A stretch of 64,000 nt of DNA from positions 8,427,008 through 8,491,007 of the forward strand of contig CM119268.1 of assembly GCA_051294375.1 (NCBI GenBank). Reading direction: 5' to 3'. Position numbers and translations under genes: made by a program. Positions 3,908-63,471 of the stretch are shown here, in pieces. Positions within the stretch are counted from its first letter, which is position 1; every line of letters begins with the position of its first letter. The stretch comes from Paraspadella gotoi. Taxonomy: Eukaryota > Animalia > Chaetognatha. The notes below the pieces were generated by a model. It saw only the letters and a program-made list of their open reading frames with translations. It did not search any database and was not told where the DNA came from.

Positions 3908-3970
3908 TATCTAGTAATAGTGGTGGAGGCCTTAAACCACCAAACCCTGTCCAAAGTCAGGGGCAAGATA
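3908..3970 (+). ncRNA. Twister ribozyme, type P5, family B copy 1 (partly degenerate)
   Basis: P5 UAUCU/AGAUA; P2 (U)AGU/ACC(A); G-G-UGG; AGGCCU; U|AA (predicted cut 3933/3934); P4 CCCUG/CAGGG; L4 U-CCA-AA-GU; T1 CCA:UGG. The conserved GA reads GG here. Homologous to 50729-50807. Confidence 0.6.
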
Positions 3971-4137
3971 CATTCGAATAGCACCCACTATCCCCTCCCA
4001 AGCCCCAAGATGACGCCTCCCCGAAATATAAGCGAAGACTTGTCCTTGTCGAAATAATAAATGATTTAATTTGTTAAATATTTGTATTTAAATCTTTATC
4101 TTTAAAACTTTAAAACCCTCAACTGTGTCGTCGACAG

Positions 4138-31353: not shown

Positions 31354-34300
31354 CTAAAATTGAACACATTGTATTCCATCCATGCAGGGCTGCGCCCACC
31401 AAGGATTTCGCCCCAGTATTCATATGATTCATCACGGAACTCTTTATTTTTTTAACCGTGCAACAGGTCTTGATTCTGGATAACATCTATTGTTTCTCAA
31501 TGTTTCTGTTGGTTTTTCTGTCGACCCATTATCGTTTTATGTCCTATTTCCTTGCACGAAGTATTTTTATTCGGTCAATTACTCCAATATTCATATTTTT
31601 TTTCTATTAAATTTAACAATTTTGTTTTCTGGGGATTTTTCAATTTTTTCCCTCGAATATCTTTTTTCTTGAAAATCTCAAACGCATTAGCGTAATTATT
31701 TNNNNNNNNNNNNNNNNNNNNNNNNNNNNNNNNNNNNNNNNNNNNNNNNNNNNNNNNNNNNNNNNNNNNNNNNNNNNNNNNNNNNNNNNNNNNNNNNNNN
31801 NNNNNNNNNNNNNNNNNNNNNNNNNNNNNNNNNNNNNNNNNNNNNNNNNNNNNNNNNNNNNNNNNNNNNNNNNNNNNNNNNTTGTCTTCATAGCTCGACT
31901 TTCTTTATCTCTGCGTCGTCGTCGTCTGCCCTCTTTATCATTCTTATCTCCCATTTATTCTATGCTTCTCTCTCCCCGCTTACTATTTCTTTCTTTCTTT
32001 TTCTCTTCTCTTCTTCCATTNNNNNNNNNNNNNNNNNNNNNNNNNNNNNNNNNNNNNNNNNNNNNNNNNNNNNNNNNNNNNNNNNNNNNNNNNNNNNNNN
32101 NNNNNNNNNNNNNNNNNNNNNNNNNNNNNNNNNNNNNNNNNNNNNNNNNNNNNNNNNNNNNNNNNNNNNNNNNNNNNNNNNNNNNNNNNNNNNNNNNNNN
32201 NNNNNNNNNNNNNNNNNNNNNNNNNNNNNNNNNNNNNNNNNNNNNNNNNNNNNNNNNNNNNNNNNNNNNNNNNNNNNNNNNNNNNNNNNNNNNNNNNNNN
32301 NNNNNNNNNNNNNNNNNNNNNNNNNNNATTCTTTTTCAAAAACTACTTTTATTTGCCAAGCTCAAAGCCATCCTTCAAATCCTCACCAGCGATTTGGTTC
32401 GATTCCAACTCGTAATTTTTCATCCTCTCTTTTTTTTTGCCTTCAACTTTCGTCGTCGCCGCGAGATGGAGCGGTAGCGCTTCGTTGGTTGCGTGGAAAC
32501 AAGACTGATTGGCGGAAAACAAATTAACTTCCGGAATCAACTGGAAAACGAGGAATTTAGATCAGAATAAAAGGGAATTGTAGTCGGTAAATAAGGATTA
32601 GATCCGGTCAGCGATCTGGTTGTTAATACGAAAATATAAAAAGAAAGGAAAGACAATCAAAAGCAGCAACAATGAAACGGTTATTTCAATAATATTTCAA
32701 TTATATCAATTGTTATGATACGAAAATGTCATAAATGTCATAACCGCGCCGAGATTTCTCCCAACCGAGACGGAATCATCGTGGCGAACGTCATCGGTCA
32801 ACGCTTTCGAATTACATCCGCGATGAAGGAAGACAATTCGGCTTGAATCGCTGCCTTCGAGATTCTATTTTTAGACTTTTTGTGTTCGACTTCTCATCGT
32901 CGCCCTTCTAGTCTCACCTGCGAATGAGTAAGTCTCATCCGAAGTTTTAAGGATCCTGATTTGAGTTCAGTNNNNNNNNNNTTTTTCGAATTACCAGAAA
33001 ATGCAAAGTCAATGAAAAAGAAGCGGATTATTCATGAACTGGGCTTTCTGCTCTGTCTCTGATTTTCTAGCCAAATTAGTATTTTATACATACTTATCCC
33101 CGTTTTTTAAAATTTTTTTAAATTTAAACAAACATTTCCTTATCAACGCTACTATTTGCCAGCGTTTTAATTAAACTCCCTTCGTTCGTTTCCTCACTTC
33201 GACCGTGAAACCTCGAGACTTTTTTTTCTTTCTTCCTTTTAAATTATTTATTTCCCCTCCCTTTTTTCCCCCGCATTTCTCCGCGACTCAACTTTGTGAG
33301 AGGAAGAGAAGTTGAATCTTTTATTTCTTAATTTTTAAGATTCCCATAAAACAGAAAATAGATTCGACAAATAGTTTGGCCGAAAAGAAACCGGGAGGGG
33401 GTGGAGGAGGAGGCGGAGCGAAAGCTAATTACACGTGATCACAAAAAAAAAATCTCATTTCTTCCTCTCCGAACCTCTCTTCTTTTGTTCCATTTCCTTT
33501 CGTTTTCTTTTCCATCTTTCTTTCGCTTCGCCTCCTCCTTATCGCCCAATATCAGTAGTTTTGATGGTTTTTTAGGCGGCTTTAACCACTCTCTGCTTCT
33601 CCTCTCAGTCTCTCTCTCTCGTCCAGTTCTCTCGGTCTCTGCATCGTCTCTCGACGATCTCTTCTCTCTTCTCATCTCTCTCGATCTCTCTTCGTCTGAT
33701 CTCTCTGCTGCTATCTCTCTTTCCCATCTCTAAAACGTATGCCGAGTCATTTTCATGCGATAACAGTTATTGAAAGGAAGTCGGTCGGAATTTTTAAGTT
33801 CTTGGGTCCCTTTCCTTTCTTCCTCCCTTTCCCTTTTTTTCTCTATTCCTTTCCTTTCTCCCTTCTTTCTCCCCTCCTATTCTTTTTCTTTCCCAAACCG
33901 GGATCACAACGAACTTACCTTTTCTTCAAGGCCGTTTCTCTTCACGAAGGCGCCAGCTCAACTCGCTGACTTCCTATCTTCGCAAGGACTCTAGTACTCG
34001 CTCTTTTTCTCACGTTTAAACTTCCGGTCGTAAGTCATCCACTCATCTTCCCGTCCGGGAGTAATTGCCAACTTCCCTCTTCTCTTAATAATCATTTAGA
34101 AGCTTCTTCCTCGTTTATATCGGCGGTGTTTTGACTATTGATAATAAGAAATCGGAACATTCAAGCATGAGTTAAAGGTAAAAAGGCATGAAGGACTTAC
34201 TGATACTACAGATATCTACAAATTAGTTTTTTATTTTTCATTTTTTCAAGTCTAAATTTATTTTCAAAACTAAATCATCGCTATCCACATTCCACATCTA

Positions 34301-34729
34301 ATCATTAATATCCATTTCATATATTTATTAACCCCATAGTTTTTTTCCTTTCCTCTCCCTCACTTTCATTTTCCTCCCCAACAACAGCAACAGCCTCAAC
34401 CCCCCCCCAACATCAAGGCCGCACCTTTTCTTCCGTCCTCCCATTATCAAGGCCGTTTTCTCCCATTAAGGGGAGGGACTTTTTCCCAGCTCCATCTCCT
34501 TACTCTTCCTGCTAAACGTCCTCCTTTGTTAAGCGCCACAATCGCTGAGTGCCTCAGCTAAGCGCCGTTGCCAAACACGGACTTGTGCTGCTTTATTCAT
34601 CGAAGCGCTATTTCTAACATTATTATCTTTAAATAGTCGGATTTATTTTTTTAAAAATGTTATGTTGAATATGATGGTAATGTGGCAGCAAGACTTAAAG
34701 CTGCCTCACTGCTGTCCGTCCTCAGCCTC

Positions 34730-35090
34730 GTCTCAATGGCTGAGCAGGCTAAATCATCTCATTCCATCCGTGCGTCCCGGGTTCAATCCCTGGGTATCCC
34801 GGTTCTGGCTTAAATGTGACGGTGCCGGTATAAACATGCCAGTGACAGGAGGCGGTCACTGAGGGTCCGCAGCCCCTACGCCAGTTGGTGAGATACCCCG
34901 CGCCCCGGGTATCACAGGCTATCCTCCCGTTGCCATAGTAACTGAGAATCATTAAGGTTAGGATAGATTCGTCCATTTCGTCTTGCACCCCGATTTTCGC
35001 CACTCTTTATTCTTAGTCAATAGATCGATAACTTTCATTCTAAGCCATCCTTGATTAAGCGCCCACATGTCCAAATGCTCCCAACTAGCT
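34730..35090 (+). mobile_element. tRNA-derived SINE-like element carrying a twister ribozyme (3' boundary uncertain)
   Basis: A box TGGCTGAGCAGG (34737-34748), B box GGTTCAATCCC (34780-34790), T-arm CCCGGG/CCTGGG. Acceptor and anticodon stems do not pair, so this is not a tRNA gene. Followed by a GC-rich structured body. Confidence 0.75.
34805..34884 (+). ncRNA. Twister ribozyme, type P5, family A (intact)
   Basis: P5 CUGGC/GCCAG; P2 AUGU/ACAU; G-A-CGG; UGCCGGUA; U|AA (predicted cut 34831/34832); T2 GC:GC; P3 CAGUGAC/GUCACUG; P4 AGGG/CCCU; L4 U-CCG-CA-GC; T1 CCG:CGG. Every element of the twister consensus is present in permuted order. Confidence 0.88.
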
Positions 35091-35099
35091 ACGAGAGAG

Positions 35100-37840
35100 A
35101 GATACCGAAAATATAAAAACGAAAGGAAGACAATCAACAGCAGCGAACAGATGAAACGGTTATTTCAATATATTCTCAATTATATCAATTAGTTATGAGA
35201 GCGAAAAATGTCATAAATGCTCAATACACCGCGCCGGACGATTCTCCTCCAAACTCAACGCAACGCGGAGCATCGAATCATTTCGTGGCGAATGTCCATC
35301 GGTCAACGCTTTATCGAAATTACATGCCGCGATGAAGGGAAGACGGATTCGGCTTCGAGATCGCTGCCTTCGAGATTCTATTTTCTACGACTTTTCTGTG
35401 TTCGACTTCCTGCCCATCGTCGCACTCTCTACCGTCTCACCCTGCGCGACACTGAGTAAGCAGCTCTCATCGCGAAGTTCTTTAAGGATCCTGAATCTTT
35501 CGAAGTTCAGTTCTTCCTTTTTCGGAATTATACCAGAAACTACAAAGCTCAACATCGAAAAAGAAGCGGGATTATTCATCAGAACTGGGCTTTCTCGCTC
35601 TGTCTTCTGATTTTCTAGCGCAGAATTAAGTCATTTTACTACAGCTACTTATCCCCGTTTTTTTAAAATTTTTTTAAATTTAAACCAAACATTTCCTTAT
35701 CAACTCGCTAACACTATTTTCCAAGAGCGTTTTAATTAAACTCCGCTTCGTTTCGTTCTCACTTCGACCGTGAAACCTCGAGACTATTTTTTTTCTTTCT
35801 TCCTTTTAAAATTATTTATTTCGCACCTCGCCCTCGTATTTTTTTTTGTATCCGGCGTTTCTCCGCGACTGCAACTTTGTCGAGAGGAAGAGAAGTTGAA
35901 TCTTTTATTTCTTATTTTTAAAGATTGCCCGCAATAAAACAGAAAATAGATTCCGACCAAATAGTTTGGCCGGAAAAAGAAACCGCGGAGGCGGGTGGCA
36001 GGAGAAGGCGGAGCGAAGCTAATTACAACAGCGTGATCCACAAAAAAATCTCATAATTCTTCCTCTCGCGAACCTCTCTTCTTTTGTTCCATTTCCTTTC
36101 GTTTTCTTTTCCATCTTTCTTTCGCTTCGCCTCCTCCTTATCGCCCAATATCAGTAGTTTTGATGGTTTTTTAGGCGGCTTTAACCACTCTCTGCTTCTC
36201 CTCTCAGTCTCTCTCTCTCGTCCAGTTCTCTCGGTCTCTGCATCGTCTCTCGACGATCTCTTCTCTCTTCTCATCTCTCTCGATCTCTCTTCGTCTGATC
36301 TCTCTGCTGCTATCTCTCTTTCCCATCTCTAAAACGTATGCCGAGTCATTTTCATGCGATAACAGTTATTGAACAGGAAGTGCGGTCGAATGTTTTTAAA
36401 AGTCTTGGGCTGCCCTTTCCTCTTCTTCCTCGCCATTTCCTTTTTTCTATATTCCATCTTCCTTTCCTCCCTTCCTTTATCACCTCCTATTACTTTCTTC
36501 TCCCAAACGCGGGCATCACAACGAACTTACATTTTCTATCAAGGCGCCGTTTCCTCCTTCACGGAAAGGCGCACCGCGTCAACTCCGCTGACTTCCTCTC
36601 TATCGCAAGGCATCTAAGTACTCGCATCTTGTTTCTGCAACGTTTAAAGCTTTCCCGGGTCGTGAGTCATCGCACTCATCTTCCCAGTCCGGGAGTAATT
36701 GCCAAGCTTCCCTCTCTCTTAAATAATCAATTTAGAAGCTTCTTCCTCAGTTTATATCGACGGTGTTTTGATATTGATAATAAGAAAAAATCGGAACATT
36801 GTCAAGCATGAGTTAAAGAGGTAAAAAGGTATGAAGGACATTACCTGATCCATTACAAATACGCATCTCCACAAATTAGTTTTTTCACAGTCTAAACTTT
36901 ATCTTCCAAAACTCAAAATCATGCAGCGCTATCACACATTCTAACAGTCCTAATCATTCACATATCCAATATTCATATATCTTATTACCCGCATAGTTTT
37001 TTTCGCTTTCTCGTCCGCTCCACTTTCATTTATCGCTCCCAAAACCAGCAACAGCGCTGCACCAACATCAGGCCGCACCTTTTCTTCGTCCCTGCCTATT
37101 ATCAAGGCGCGTTTTACTCTCTCGCGCATCTAAGGGGAAGGGACTTTTTCCCCAGCTCCATCTCCTTACTCTTCGCTGCTAAACGCGCGTCCTGCCTTTG
37201 TTAAGCGGCAGCAAGATCGCGCTGAGTGCCGTCAGCTAAGCGCCGTTGCCAACCGGACTTGATGCTGGCCTTTATTCATCGCGAAGCGCTATTTCATAAA
37301 CATTATTCATCCATTCTAAAAAACTAGTCAGATTACTATTTTTTTAAAACATGTTATTCGCTTGAATATGATGGTAATGCTGGCAGCAAGACTTAAGCTG
37401 CCGCTCACTGCCTTGTCCGTCGCTGCGAGGGCGCTCGTCTCAATGGGCCTGAGCAAGGCCTAAATCATCTCATTCATCCGTGCGTCCGGGTTCATCCCCT
37501 GGGTATGCCGCGGTTCTCGGCTTATAATGTGACGGTGCCGGTATAGAACATGCCAGTGACAGGAGGCGGTCAACTGAGGGTCCGCAGCGCGCCTACGCCC
37601 AGTTTGGTATTGAGATACCCCAGCGCCCACGGGTATCACAAGGCTTATCCTTGCCGTTGACCATCACGTAAAACCTGAGAACATCTAAGGTTAGCGATAG
37701 ATTTCGTCGCAATTTCTGTTTGCACCGCCGACTTTTCGCCACCTCTTTATTCTTAGTCAATAAGCATCGCATTAACTTTGCTTCTAAGCCGATCCTTGAT
37801 TAAGCGCGCCACATGTCGCAAATGCCTCCGGCAACTAGCT
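35100..37840 (+). repeat. Insertion-rich copy of ~32625-35090, including a noisy SINE (from 37437) and twister (37516-37602)
   Basis: Colinear with dense extra bases, yet ~36070-36370 is essentially identical to ~33470-33770, consistent with patchy polishing of a raw read. Confidence 0.9.
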
Positions 37841-39169
37841 ATATCGTCATTCCACTAAGCGCATCCTTACTTGCCGACAATGCTTCGCTCCCTTCCGAGC
37901 GCCCTCATTGAGGGCGCGGCGCCGCCGGAACGAAACATTTCACCGGCGATTCTTGAACGGGTATGTTGTTGTTGTGTGCAATGTGTTTGGCCGGTATCTA
38001 NNNNNNNNNNNNNNNNNNNNNNNNNCGGTATTGTTCCGTGAATGGCTTCTTTGCCAAGGCTCTCACTTCGTTCTTATCGCCTGCGACGGTGAGTCGGTGA
38101 CTAAGTTTCTCTTCGCCTTGGTCTTCCCTTCTTCTCATCATCCTTTTTTTAATTTTTATCAATTTTACATAATCCATTAATCATGCGCCACTTACGACGT
38201 ACATTGTACGTACATATGTAAATTGAGTTTCTTTTCAAAGTTAATGTTTATCCCACGAGATTTTCCCAGAGCCTTTAGTATAAGTTCCATGTCGTAATCG
38301 CAGCTTATCGTGAGAGCCATTACTTTGTCTACTTTTACTTTTTTTATGCAGAATTCTGTCTTTTTTTTTAAATTATCATTACGATTTTTTTATATTTACA
38401 ACTACGTACGTATGTATATATTACATCGTTTTTCTCATTTTTTTTCATCCGCTTGTTCCTTAAATCCATGCAAGATAGTTTTTCATTTATTTATTTTCCA
38501 TTCATTGCTGCTTTGACGTTCGCCGAATAACTGCAATCTCACTGTCACTAACATGGATCTGTATTCAAAGGCCCCAGGCGCCTCCTTCACCGCCTGCTCC
38601 GCCTGTTCCCCCTTTGTCGCCGTTCCATCATTGGCCAATGGCATCGATGATGACGTCGGCTTAATGCGCTCTCCCTATTTTTTCCATCGTCGTCTTCGTC
38701 GTCCGATGTTGTCGTTTGAGACAAAAGAACATCGTTACGTCGCGAAAGACAAAGGGGCTCAGCCGGACTCAGCCGGACTCAGCCGGACCTTCGTTGTCAA
38801 TTTAAACCTTCGTTTTCTGCTTTTCCGATGTCGTAGTTGCGCGCGATCAGCTTTCTTGTGAGAGATCTGATCAGAATTGTTCCAGTCTAAACCACGGTCC
38901 GCGAGTTATAGAAAGGCCCACGAACGAGTTGCACGCCAACCAAAAGCGATCTTAATCGGCGCGAGCCGTGTCGTAATATCATGTTATATTTATATTATTC
39001 AGACCTGAGAATAAAAATGAGAAAAAACGACCGCGTTATAACTCGGTGAATTAATATTAATATATATAATATTAATAAATGGGTTGCTGGAAGCAACGTC
39101 AAGTGATGATAAAAATTCCCCAAGAACCCAAGAGGCTCATGGAATTGAAGTTAGATTAGCCATGTTTAC

Positions 39170-50120: not shown

Positions 50121-50745
50121 AGCATCCTCATCTTCGTCGTAATCATAACTGTCTCCATCTCTACGTCATCGATTTCCGTCGCGAAGAAAAAATTCTTTTT
50201 TTTATTCTTTTTTTTTCATTCATTTTTTTTCTTGATTATCTTGTCATCTACTATTTCCTCCCCTTTTTTTTCTTCTCTATTTTTTCCCATTTCATTTTCT
50301 TTGATGACCTGTCACTTATTAATCTCCTAATCTTCTCCACTAGATACACATTCATGCTCGCCCTGGATTCACGTATTAAGAATGATCTCTCCCTGTTTCA
50401 TGTATTTCATTGTGATGCCCCTATTTAGTATTTACTCTCACATGAACGGCATATGTCACCAATCGGTTACAACGCGATTTCAACAATTTCCGAAGAACAA
50501 ACCTAGAAAAAGACAATGTCCACATCAAGTTTGGCATAGTAAAACGAATTAGAATGTAGCATCATAATATAATATAATAAAAAATATAAAATATAATACT
50601 TAAGGGAGTGGTCTTTTTATACAATTTAAACATTCTTTGAAACATTATACCGCTTCATTGATAGGGAAACCTGGTACTCTGGGAGTGAATAAATGAGACT
50701 GATATAGAGTCTTGATTGAAAGCTTGCAGGGACCTGATCGGTAAT

Positions 50746-50807
50746 TATCTTGTAAGAGTGATGGAGGCCTTAAACCCACAAGCCTGTCCAAAGTCATGGG
50801 CAAGATA
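50746..50807 (+). ncRNA. Twister ribozyme, type P5, family B copy 2
   Basis: P5 UAUCUUG/CAAGAUA; UAA; P2 GAGU/ACCC (one A.C); G-A-UGG; AGGCCU; U|AA (predicted cut 50771/50772); T2 AC:GU; P4 CCUG/CA(U)GG; L4 U-CCA-AA-GU; T1 CCA:UGG. Confidence 0.72.
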
Positions 50808-51053
50808 GCTTATTTATTAAATGAATGAATAATTTTTATATTGGTCGTGCCAATTTCATTTCATAGGTTACTCTTTTAGACTGACTATTTCAATCTTGAC
50901 TTTAAATTTCCCATCATTTTTTCCTTCAACTTATTTCCTCACTTTTTCTCACACAGAATGATCTTACTGAATATTATTCTTTCTATCCATTTCCTCGTTT
51001 TATCTTCGTTTCATCGTCTCACTTTCAATCATAACTTTCTCATTTAGATTGAC

Positions 51054-57404: not shown

Positions 57405-57531
57405 CAAGAGCTGAAGGACCGCGACCGAGAACTCAACGTCATGGTGGCGCAACATCAAAAACAAATGGCCGCTTGGGACGAAGACAGACAAAAGCTCCTC
57501 TCTCTGGAGCATAAATGCGGTCGACAAGACG
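57405..57531 (+). CDS. CCDC62: CCDC62-like exon, 5' end in gap (QELKDRDRELNVMVAQHQKQMAAWDEDRQKLLSLEHKCGRQDG)
   Basis: Matches the recalled human segment ELKDRDKELNDMVAVHQQQLLSWEEDRQKVLTLEERC. Phase 1 donor G|gtgaga. Confidence 0.92.
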
Positions 57532-59972: not shown

Positions 59973-61563
59973 AAATAGTAATAAAAGAAAGTCAAAATAC
60001 AAATTTAAATTTAAAACATAATGTGTAACACTAAGAAGTACGGATGGAGATGAAGTATAGCTGGGATTGCCCCAAAGATCCTTAAGTGTAATCTTAAAGT
60101 TTATTAAACAAGTCGATGAAAAGACGGATCTATAATTTTAAAGTTTTTATACGGAATTTTAAATGAGAGGTTAAATGAAATGATCAATATACATGTGGAG
60201 AGAGAGAGAGTTAAATAGAAAGTAGAGAGCTATTCTGATAAAATAATTGTTAGATTTTACACCCTGGATAAAAAGAATCCGCTAAATTTTTTTATTTTAA
60301 ACTCTCAATAAGTCCAGCTTGCTTATTTCTTATTTGTTAGATATGGGCTTATCAGTAGAGAGACGATAGAGATGTGATAAGTTTGAAAAAAAAATTGTTT
60401 TTTATAAAATTAGTAGAACGTCAAGTATAAGTGAAAAGGAAAATGATATCCAGTCTTTAATAACTAAGAAGTTATTATCTGTCTTCTATATTTGAAATAA
60501 GACTTTCTGTTATAAATATATTTTTTATTAAAAAAAAAAATATTTTATAATTTTATTTATACAAATATAAAAACATTACACATGTGTTTAAACCAATTCT
60601 GAATGTCAAAAACTTTTTTACAACCACAATGATACTCAAATGATAGCTTTTTGATTATTTTTATAAAATGTTTTGATAAGATATAAGAAATAAAAATAAT
60701 TCGGATATAGATTTAAAGAAATCGATTTTCCCAAGTTAGTTTTGGGAAATACTTCAGTTTAGAAAATTATAATCTCTTAAACCAACTATGACCAGATTGT
60801 AAAAATAAAATTTAATCATATTGGATTCTTTCTTTTAACAAATTTTAATTTTTAATATAAAAAATTTTTAAGAAATGTTCTTTTATAGTTATCTTAAATT
60901 TAAGTTATAAAGGAGACAAAATTTTTTTTGTACCAGGAGTACATTTAGAGGTGAAGAGCAAACTCAGAACAAAAAAATAGTATTTGAAATGATTTAATCG
61001 AACTCAGAATATATTAGATGTGAGGATAGATATGAAGTTAACTAGGTAATAATACAAATATTTTGTTCATATTGTTGGTATACAGGAAATAGTGAATAAT
61101 AATATATTTGTAATAATATTCTTATAAAATTAGTAAATTTTAATAAAGATTCAGATTCTTCATAAAAAGTTTAAATCAAAAATAGTGAACAAAATAATAT
61201 CAAAATTACATAATTCGAATTCTACAAGACAATATTTAAAAAATAGGAAAAAAGAAATAAAAATTTTATCATTTTTTTATTCTCATGTTACTGAAACTTT
61301 ATGTATGTTAAAACTTTTTAGTCATAGTTTTGCGATACTAAACATTAAAATATAAAAAATGACGACCGAGTTTGAAAAGCACTTTGTGCCGAACTCACCC
61401 AAAAAAGATGTGACTAGAATGCAAAGCTGCTCAAAAAATAAAAGAAAAGGGAAAAAAATAATCGCCTATTTTCACCGGCCTCTTTCCTCTTCCATCCTTT
61501 CCCCCCCTCACCCTCATTACACCCACCTAATCCACCCACAACTCCAAACCACCCCATCCTCAG

Positions 61564-61763
61564 GCGAATTGAATTCGATGACGCAAAAGGTGACGTCGCT
61601 CACGGTTCACGTGAAGTCGTTGGAACACGAAACGTCGTCGCTGCGCTCGTCGCTCGACTCGGCGCACGCGCAGGTGAAGGCGTTGGCGACGGACAACGGA
61701 GACGTGAAAACGCGAGCGGATCAGCTGGAGTCACAGAACAACAGACTCGCCAATAGCGTGAAG
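61564..61763 (+). CDS. CCDC62: CCDC62-like coiled-coil exon (G|ELNSMTQKVTSLTVHVKSLEHE...LESQNNRLANSVK)
   Basis: cctcag| acceptor in phase 1 matches the previous donor; AAG|gtgagt donor. Aligns with the recalled human segment GELHKRTEIIRSLTKKVKALE...LEARNETLSNTLV. No later exon recognised within the window. Confidence 0.88.
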
Positions 61764-63471
61764 GTGAGTGGTTTTGGGGGTGATGGTGAGTGGTGAGGGG
61801 GTGAACGGTGAAGAGGGAATGACGGAAGACGAGAGGGCTATGACATCAGTACTTGGCAATATTTTGTATTTTTGTATTTTATGTACATCGTGAATAAACG
61901 TTTACAAAACTTCTGATGGGAGAAGGAAAAATCTCTCACGATAATGGAAAAAAAAAATTCGGTCCCCGGATGTAGATCGACGACATTATTGTGGCTTCCG
62001 TATGAAAAAAAAGAAAATGGGGTTCGAGTTTCGGGGTCGAAGAAACGAGAATCGATTTCGTCTCACACGAGATTTCGATCACGTGACACCGAGGAGGGCG
62101 CGAGTGGCGAGTGCTCTCGGGAGAGTGCCAGAGCGAGACGAGATCTTTGGAGATTGTTGAGGCTCAAGAGTCCCTCTCTTTCTCTCTATCTCTCTCTCTC
62201 TCTTTCTCTCTTTCTCTCTCTCTGTCTGCGTATTTCCTGTTTGTCTCTGTCTCTGTTTCCCTGAGACTCGATTCGCTTTACTCGATCTTTATGAGAAATA
62301 AATTTTGCTTTCTAAGAATCTTTATTCCCAAAGGCGAGAATGATTTTATGGCAACGCAAACTCTCTTTCTNNNNNNNNNNNNNNNNNNNNNNNNNNNNNN
62401 NNNNNNNNNNNNNNNNNNNNNNNNNNNNNNNNNNNNNNNNNNNNNNNNNNNNNNNNNNNNNNNNNNNNNNNNNNNNNNNNNNNNNNNNNNNNNNNNNNNN
62501 NNNNNNNNNNNNNNNNNNNNNNNNNNNNNNNNNNNNNGTCATCAGAAGTATGATGTCGTATGATGCTTTATTTTAGTCTCTTCTTTTCTTTTACTTTCTT
62601 TCGGCCGCTGGTATCTTCAATTTGCCTATTCGCTTTCTTCTCAACTTCCCTATTTGTCAACACGCTTCATTATCAATGTATTTAGCAATTTTATTTTAAT
62701 TCTTTGTTTCCTCTTTTGTTTTGACCCTCGCAATTAAACAACTCCTTTCAACTAAACAGTTAAATTCCTAAGTCGCTTTCGGCGCGCTAACAATGGCGTC
62801 GGGGTTCCATCGGTTCGCCTCGGCATTGAGACTTGATGGACCGAATTCTTTTGTTTGAAATTAGACGCCCTCTAGTAGTAAACTCGGAAACGATGTGGCG
62901 GCGTAGAAGGACAATTGCGTCAATGACGACGAGGGAACGTGGGCCATTTGGTTTAATGATAACCACGAGGCAAACAACAAAGACGACTACGGCAATAAAG
63001 AAATATTGTTCGTTAAAGAATAACGAGTTTAACTTTAACATCGTTACCGACGACAATAATCGCGAATTTAACAAAAATGAACTTTGATCACACCTGATCT
63101 ACACTTCCGATGATCCTTTAATCTTGCTTTAAGCTTGAAGAGAACGTAATGTTTTTTTGTTTACTTTTTTTTTGGTTTTGTTTTTTTTTATTTTGTCCGT
63201 TTCGCACTTCACGCTGCGAAGAAAGAGCGAACGTTTTTTCTTTCTTTTTTTTTCTGTCTTTCTTTCTTTTTTTTTTCTTTCTTTCTTTCTCTCTTTATTT
63301 TTTTCTTTCTTTTCTTTCTCTTTTTCTTTGATTCTTTCTTTCTTTCTTTGTCCATTTTCTCTTTTTTTTATTTCCTTCCCTATCCATTTGTTGACGGAGA
63401 GCGAGAGGTTTTGTATTTGTCGGGAATGGCAAGTGGTCCTCCTCGTGTCGTTATCGTTGGGAAGTGGGGGG

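Follow-up and report, generated by a model that had tools for sequence, protein, structure and literature searches.

The window (the whole stretch of 64,000 nucleotides that was analysed) is microsatellite-rich eukaryotic DNA with N gaps. Large stretches of 6677-30467 and 32629-37841 recur at 72-90% identity with many indels, beside N gaps, and copy counts within the window are therefore inflated by noisy long-read duplicates. On the forward strand, 57405-57530 and about 61500-61775 are probable exons of a coiled-coil protein gene, which matched generic coiled-coil models in Pfam below the cut-off only and which we take to resemble CCDC62. The layout of a type-P5 twister ribozyme is found in a short mobile unit (family A) and, with imperfections, in two copies of another repeat (family B), at the following positions:

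34681..34937, forward strand: family A unit of 257 bp with TG...TA ends, delimited by a depth step, loose contig ends and an empty-site contig
34677..34680, forward strand: left 4-bp target-site duplication, identical to 34938-34941, with no extension to 5 bp
34938..34941, forward strand: right 4-bp target-site duplication, identical to the left copy
34737..34748, forward strand: RNA polymerase III box A, tRNA-derived, from the A+B box pattern
34780..34790, forward strand: RNA polymerase III box B, from the A+B box pattern, with the tRNA T-arm around it intact
34805..34884, forward strand: type-P5 twister fold of family A, descriptor match with 0 imperfections
34805-34809/34880-34884, P5; 34814-34817/34834-34837, P2; 34840-34846/34855-34861, P3; 34862-34865/34874-34877, P4 of family A
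34818-34822, GAnGG strand; 34820-34822/34867-34869, pseudoknot T1; 34838-34839/34872-34873, pseudoknot T2 of family A
34831-34833, U|AA of family A, with the predicted cut between 34831 and 34832
34823..34830, forward strand: family A P1 segment, 8 nt, self-complementary with centre CCGG, from sequence and pairing energy
3908..3970, forward strand: type-P5 twister fold of family B, copy 1, with 3 imperfections and the P1 segment at 3927-3932
50746..50807, forward strand: type-P5 twister fold of family B, copy 2, without P3, with 2 imperfections and the P1 segment at 50765-50770 (centre GGCC)

All type-P5 twister parts are present in family A in the sequence order of the Rfam Twister-P5 consensus: P5, P2', GACGG, the P1 segment, U|AA, P2, GC, an added 7-bp P3, and P4 with the loop UCCGCAGC. 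P2, P4, and P5 are fully paired, both pseudoknots are complete (T1 with 3/3 pairs, T2 with 2/2), and the conserved bases of U|AA, GAnGG, and loop L4 are intact. A type-P5 descriptor that is blind to P1 matched family A with 0 imperfections, with 0 matches in the 60 block-wise dinucleotide shuffles that set the chance level. An Rfam search of the window returned no twister, either at the gathering threshold or at E up to 10; the type-P5 model RF02684 misses family A and both family B copies. Family A resembles RF02684 in part order, in P2, P4, and P5, in both pseudoknots, and in the U|AA, GAnGG, and UCCn.AGY loop motifs, but it has an added P3, scores below Rfam detection, and sits in a eukaryotic mobile element. 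P1 differs as well: the consensus has a hairpin of 7 bp (eight microbial examples, 4-8 bp), and families A and B have a 6-8 nt palindrome.

The sequence-only reading had proposed that the P1 stem is replaced at 34822-34831, and likewise in the second family, by a self-complementary sequence, and the sequence is as claimed: the 8-nt UGCCGGUA lies between the GAnGG strand and U|AA in family A, and the 6-nt AGGCCU occupies the P1 place in both family B copies. Its estimate that hairpins there reach at most 1-2 bp is also borne out. The family A segment forms 2 bp and a 4-nt loop at +5.0 kcal/mol and that of family B 1 bp and a 4-nt loop at +5.6 kcal/mol, with computed homoduplex energies of -10.9 and -9.1 kcal/mol, respectively. 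The stable P1 hairpin typical of type-P5 twisters is thus lacking (1-2 bp, +5.0 to +5.6 kcal/mol), and we file both families as type-P5 variants because P1 is reported to be dispensable in type-P1 twisters. An intermolecular P1 of 6-10 bp had been proposed as well; the self-complementarity stands, but the usable helix has 8 bp in family A and 6 bp in family B, not 10 and 8, because, judging from the twister layout, the longer duplexes would take up the last G of T1 and the U before the scissile bond.

The layout of family B is that of family A minus P3, with compensatory letters at T1 and T2 relative to family A. Copy 2 has the conserved bases of U|AA, GAnGG, and L4 intact, whereas the defects of copy 1 include the conserved A of the GAnGG strand and a broken T2. 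The descriptor matched the copy at 50760 with 2 imperfections (chance mean 0.07 matches per shuffle) and the copy at 3922 with 3 (chance mean 0.38 per shuffle, too high to stand alone), and the latter was called because of its 85% identity to the other copy. The two copies are 85% alike over 81 bp, and their similarity is confined to about 80 bp. Inspection by eye of 50150-50900 for a GIY-YIG or reverse transcriptase remnant of a Naiad element beside family B revealed no recognisable frame. From its sequence, family B likely uses the same palindrome device as family A. Degenerate look-alikes of a minimal hammerhead core, too decayed to call, lie at 4005-4040 and 50695-50730, downstream of one family B copy and upstream of the other; they would be consistent with family B having arisen from a Penelope-like element.

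Family A is represented by one real locus in the window. A second, apparently independent insertion at 37378..37667 (forward strand) was rejected as a noisy duplicate of the same locus, with the same flanks and many indels; the surrounding 33895-35091 and 36505-37841 are 81% alike, again with many indels. To delimit the element, contigs of four of the 17 listed sequencing runs were aligned to 34480-35100. The results given here are from run X4; the other three aligned runs, which carry other organism labels, gave 1, 5, and 1 contigs, too few to use, and were left out. Depth steps and loose contig ends fall at 34681 and 34937, and one contig joins 34676 to 34938, an empty-site allele that confirms the 4-bp duplication. 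There are 1691 contigs on 34681-34937, of which 835 are at least 99% alike. Summed depth on the unit is 3,000-6,700 times that of the flank, or 1,350-2,900 times with a single-copy depth closer to 225, depth not being equivalent to copy number. We read these contig depths as a young family of near-identical copies numbering on the order of thousands. No relatives of family A were detected among the metagenome contigs searched.

The ends of the unit form a 9-bp imperfect terminal inverted repeat (7/9 matches) and pair with each other in the predicted fold. The A+B box pattern, written after the sequence was seen, has a single match in the window and arises in 1 of 20,000 element shuffles; ARAGORN detected no tRNA gene in the unit, and no T4 terminator lies within it, the first being at 34994. 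The animal Helenus TRIMs (TRIMp3; Kojima 2024) are described as having tRNA-derived A and B boxes, 4-bp duplications, solo LTRs, and up to thousands of copies (PMC10886601), and family A shares with them the tRNA-derived boxes in a short LTR, the 4-bp duplication, the solo unit, and a copy number in the thousands. The Helenus criterion for LTR ends is TG...CA with a short inverted repeat, whereas family A has TG...TA with 7/9 matches; two Helenus LTRs in the supplement of that paper also end in TA. Family A further differs in having about 145 bp 3′ of box B, which hold the twister; the available text of PMC10886601 names no ribozyme in Helenus, and its main text mentions ribozymes in a reference title only. 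Family A is likely to be the solo LTR of a Helenus-type TRIM. No internal region, primer binding site, or polypurine tract was seen around the solo unit of the window, and no two-LTR copy was seen either there or among the best-supported X4 contigs listed. A SINE was rejected on three counts: about 55 bp of the unit precede box A, an A-rich tail is missing, and the ends are inverted repeats flanked by a 4-bp duplication. A head-to-tail satellite is unsupported, since none of the 15 joints listed (of 17) connects end to start at high depth. A MITE is less likely than a solo LTR, given that the inverted repeat is an imperfect one of 9 bp and that promoter and ribozyme fold fill the interior.

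In two wasp LTRs of the PMC10886601 supplement, Helenus-2_SyUm-LTR and Helenus-2_SyJa-LTR, a type III hammerhead was recognised by eye; it has a loop-loop pseudoknot and lies immediately 3′ of box B, the same slot that the twister fills in family A. No twister was found in the bivalve, fish, brachiopod, and nemertean Helenus LTRs examined in that supplement, and a screen of it with eleven 9-letter twister loop variants gave two matches, neither of them a twister.

Because a hairpin needs only the outer pairs of the P1 segment, its central four bases are the test of whether the palindrome itself is selected, as had been proposed. The centres CCGG (family A) and GGCC (family B) are both perfect Watson-Crick palindromes, for which the chance is 0.065 each and 0.004 jointly. 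For a microbial control, six pattern scans of viral, prokaryotic, and metagenomic contigs supplied 233 loci, of which the descriptor kept 22; eight long-stem type-P5 twisters and one with a short P1 (L224) were used, and 13 were dropped. A palindromic centre occurs in 0/8 of the well-formed long-stem twisters, whose P1 hairpins span 12-23 nt. Five of the dropped loci are junctions of tandem type-P1 twisters, three more have a type-P1 reading, and five are likely chance matches with 3/4 pairs in P2 and doubtful context, one of which (L232) has a 6-nt P1 that is self-complementary if G.U pairs are allowed. The scans recovered no eukaryotic short-P1 twister from these collections. L224 (297-340), a type-P5 twister that is well formed, occupies a gap between genes on a phage-like metagenome contig; its P1 region is 5 nt with an off-centre 4-nt palindrome, and its relative L206 has a normal 4-bp GNRA hairpin. 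The tandem arrangement is exemplified by L063 (55-160; also L059, L182, L186, and L219), in which two head-to-tail type-P1 twisters lie about 55 nt apart in gut-type phage or metagenome contigs; their junction mimics a short-P1 type-P5 twister.

Naiad elements were published as lacking hammerheads, and the available text makes no mention of twisters (PMC8557442). We surveyed by eye the last 330-600 nt of 53 of the 54 consensus sequences in File S5 of that paper, a range that motifs further upstream would escape, and found a type-P5 twister in seven of the 53 tails: Mley, 1_Movir, Mgal, Bpla, Mphi, Scon, and Mmer, from a ctenophore, a cubozoan, and five bivalves. P5, P2, P4, and both pseudoknots covary among them, with T1 reduced to 2/3 pairs in three of the seven. 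The P1 region consists of two self-complementary stretches in 7/7; the first has five different centres (CGCG, GTAC, CTAG, TGCA, and GCGC, the last three times), and in Bpla the second is altered on both of its sides. A loop screen of the Naiad supplement with six 9-letter variants gave 10 matches, none of them a twister. The Naiad and window twisters are alike in their type-P5 fold and in having self-complementary sequence where P1 would be, but there are two palindromes of 8-12 nt in Naiad and one of 6-8 nt in the window families, and the element class of family A is different; a common origin is only a possibility.

Conservation of the palindrome across genomic copies had been put forward as a check, and in run X4 the data bear on it only weakly. 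None of the inner six P1 positions has a variant at 2% or more, which is weak evidence because the same holds for about 248 of the 257 positions of a young family. Variation along the element peaks at the outer pair (34823 T>A, 12.8%; 34830 A>C, 6.1%, and A>T, 2.4%), so some family A copies would have only a 6-bp duplex. Summed depths at these two sites are 39,199 and 34,861, which would fit a linked change in an older subfamily.

Folding was predicted with a program that ignores both pseudoknots. The unconstrained monomer of the 80-nt family A core misfolds (P2 probability 0.01), whereas its dimer adopts a swapped layout with P5 at 0.98, P2 at 0.79, P3 at 1.0, P4 at 0.59, and the palindrome duplex at 0.97. 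The dimer free energy, -11.8 kcal/mol, ranks tenth of 256 centres, and swapped P2 exceeds 0.5 for 13/16 palindromic centres vs. 31/240 others. Among 10 control twisters, monomer P2 exceeds 0.8 in seven and is not formed in two, and swapped dimers are also predicted in two; monomer P2 in L224 is 0.85. In the full element, or the form that begins at the Pol III start, the twister layout of family A is disfavoured in monomer and dimer alike, with swapped P2 at 0.15-0.19. The palindrome duplex of the damaged family B copy 2 has a probability of 0.10.

The arrangement resembles that of the dimer-type hammerheads of Penelope-like elements and amphibian retrozymes (PMC6765202, PMC7761336, PMC7229834), in which the helix beside the cleavage site is cut to 1-2 bp with a palindromic tetraloop, also in a retroelement host. 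The ribozyme class is different, and dimer cleavage has been measured there while for the twister it would follow from predicted pairing. Axolotl hammerheads cleave as monomers to 6% (1 bp and a palindromic tetraloop) or 22% (2 bp and a tetraloop) and far better as dimers (PMC7229834). Family A is also like the plant LTR retrozymes in having a ribozyme fold inside a short LTR, a 4-bp duplication, no coding sequence, and solo LTRs (PMC4918200). The plant elements have a type III hammerhead, whereas family A, known from DNA sequence alone, has a twister fold and its own Pol III promoter; LTR retrozymes being defined by a hammerhead in the LTR, the comparison is to how they work. LTR retrozymes are still mainly known from plants and with hammerheads, according to the available text of a 2026 preprint (10.64898/2026.07.22.740005). 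A weak-P1 twister in an animal retroelement has a precedent in the T-variant twisters of Schistosoma Perere-3, but these are type-P1, lie at the 5′ end of a LINE, and have P1 partly formed by the target site, with no mention of dimers or palindromes in the part of the source available (PMC8501958).

From the fold predictions and the hammerhead analogy, we favour dimer-enhanced twister cleavage, probably between two LTRs of one transcript rather than dependent on concentration, and give it a probability of about 0.55. As in the axolotl hammerheads, dimerisation would be expected to enhance cleavage more than to be absolutely required. The favourable evidence comprises the palindromic centres of the window families (2/2), the Naiad count of 7/7 vs. 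0/8 for microbial long-stem twisters, the swapped-dimer fold, and the axolotl hammerhead geometry; against it are the predicted misfolding of the full unit, the variable outer P1 pair, the duplex probability of 0.10 in family B copy 2, and the 5-nt P1 of L224. The earlier proposal of selection for the palindrome therefore finds support in the Naiad comparison and the predicted swapped dimer, tempered by the dispensability of P1 in type-P1 twisters, whereas concentration-dependent cleavage is probably the wrong in vivo picture for family A: with the unit likely being an LTR, a transcript would naturally supply the partner itself, in its other LTR. Transcription would start by Pol III near 34726 in the 5′ LTR, and a two-LTR transcript would carry two ribozyme copies, whose palindromes may pair as an 8-bp helix that replaces two strained 2-bp hairpins. 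Each active site would then combine the 5′ half of one copy with the 3′ half of its partner, and the two cuts would free a unit-length RNA whose 5′-OH and cyclic-phosphate ends could be joined into a circle by a host ligase, as with plant retrozymes (PMC4918200). Circles and solo-LTR transcripts, holding one copy, would be cut slowly. The niche itself does not demand dimers because the wasp Helenus hammerhead looks monomer-competent.

A rather unlikely alternative is that the ribozyme acts as a monomer, the one or two P1 pairs stacking on T1 and closing the 4-nt loop during co-transcriptional self-cleavage, with the palindromes incidental or an ancestral leftover. P1 is dispensable in type-P1 twisters (PMC5408937), and its length, energy, and flaws had no effect on cleavage among 1948 scored type-P1 twisters (PMC11662667); moreover, 6-8 nt could sterically span the helix end, L224 provides a natural 5-nt P1 whose monomer is predicted to fold, and the outer P1 pair of family A varies. 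The last point cuts both ways, since the positions that a monomer hairpin needs most are the most variable ones. The published P1 tests, as far as the available sources go, concern type-P1 twisters, in which P1 is an open end and not a tight covalent linker, and a monomer leaves unexplained why centres are palindromic in 2/2 families here and in 7/7 Naiads vs. 0/8 long-stem microbial twisters.

The palindrome might instead act after a monomeric cut, which would leave it as the free 3′ terminus of the upstream product, by pairing two RNAs for packaging, strand transfer, or priming in the manner of a retroviral dimerisation site. The segment would indeed be terminal and unpaired after the predicted cut, its homoduplex energy is favourable (-10.9 kcal/mol), and the host is likely an LTR element of a kind that borrows Gypsy particles (PMC10886601). 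We nevertheless judge this improbable: the palindrome is placed identically in Naiad Penelope-like elements, which have no particles, and the hammerhead precedent is one of catalytic dimerisation. Most improbable is that the folds are inactive passengers, family A misfolding in its real transcript and spreading without cutting, and family B being decayed relics. The predicted misfolding of the full element, the 2 and 3 imperfections in the family B copies, and the absence of a ribozyme in most of the published Helenus LTRs examined in the PMC10886601 supplement would agree with this, but family A has lost no helix, neither pseudoknot, and none of the conserved bases. In run X4, variants at 2% or more are also absent from its catalytic core, although this is a young family.

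A broader form of dimer-enhanced cleavage, which we hold only tentatively, is that two unrelated classes of animal retroelement, Helenus-type TRIMs and Naiad, use twisters gated by palindromic-P1 dimerisation. Family A would then be an animal LTR retrozyme in which cleavage of the Pol III transcript requires its two LTR copies to pair in cis and frees a circularising unit safe from further cutting. Type-P5 twisters, dimer-type hammerheads, Helenus, and retrozymes are each known; a palindromic-P1 twister in a likely Helenus-type LTR appears to be new. Our literature searches listed nothing on twisters that are dimeric or palindromic, or that occur in Helenus or Naiad, although the Roth 2014 alignments and the supplement of PMC11662667 could hold short-P1 examples of type-P3 or type-P5, and the sole twister dimer met in the literature is, in the text available, a crystal artefact. 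If the broader claim were true, the dimer gate known from hammerheads would have arisen a second time, in a ribozyme unrelated to them, which would suggest that retroelements generally need to restrict cutting to tandem or two-ended transcripts. Helenus and Naiad, whose descriptions include no ribozyme, would each gain one, and LTR retrozymes would extend beyond plants. Palindromic-P1 twisters may be common and missed because such folds escape Rfam, and RNA engineers would have a ready-made logic part in a natural twister that depends on two copies.

Another conserved and apparently pseudoknotted fold was recognised by eye in 9/53 Naiad tails, none of them twister-bearing: CGi, Sglo, Olur, Tgra, Pmar, 1_Skow, 2_Skow, 1_Pfla, and 2_Pfla. 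It is preceded by a 10-nt palindrome that varies between families (centres CCGG, CTAG, and CATG), with a looser version in 2_Chem, and from these sequences it is a candidate for an undescribed dimer-type ribozyme.
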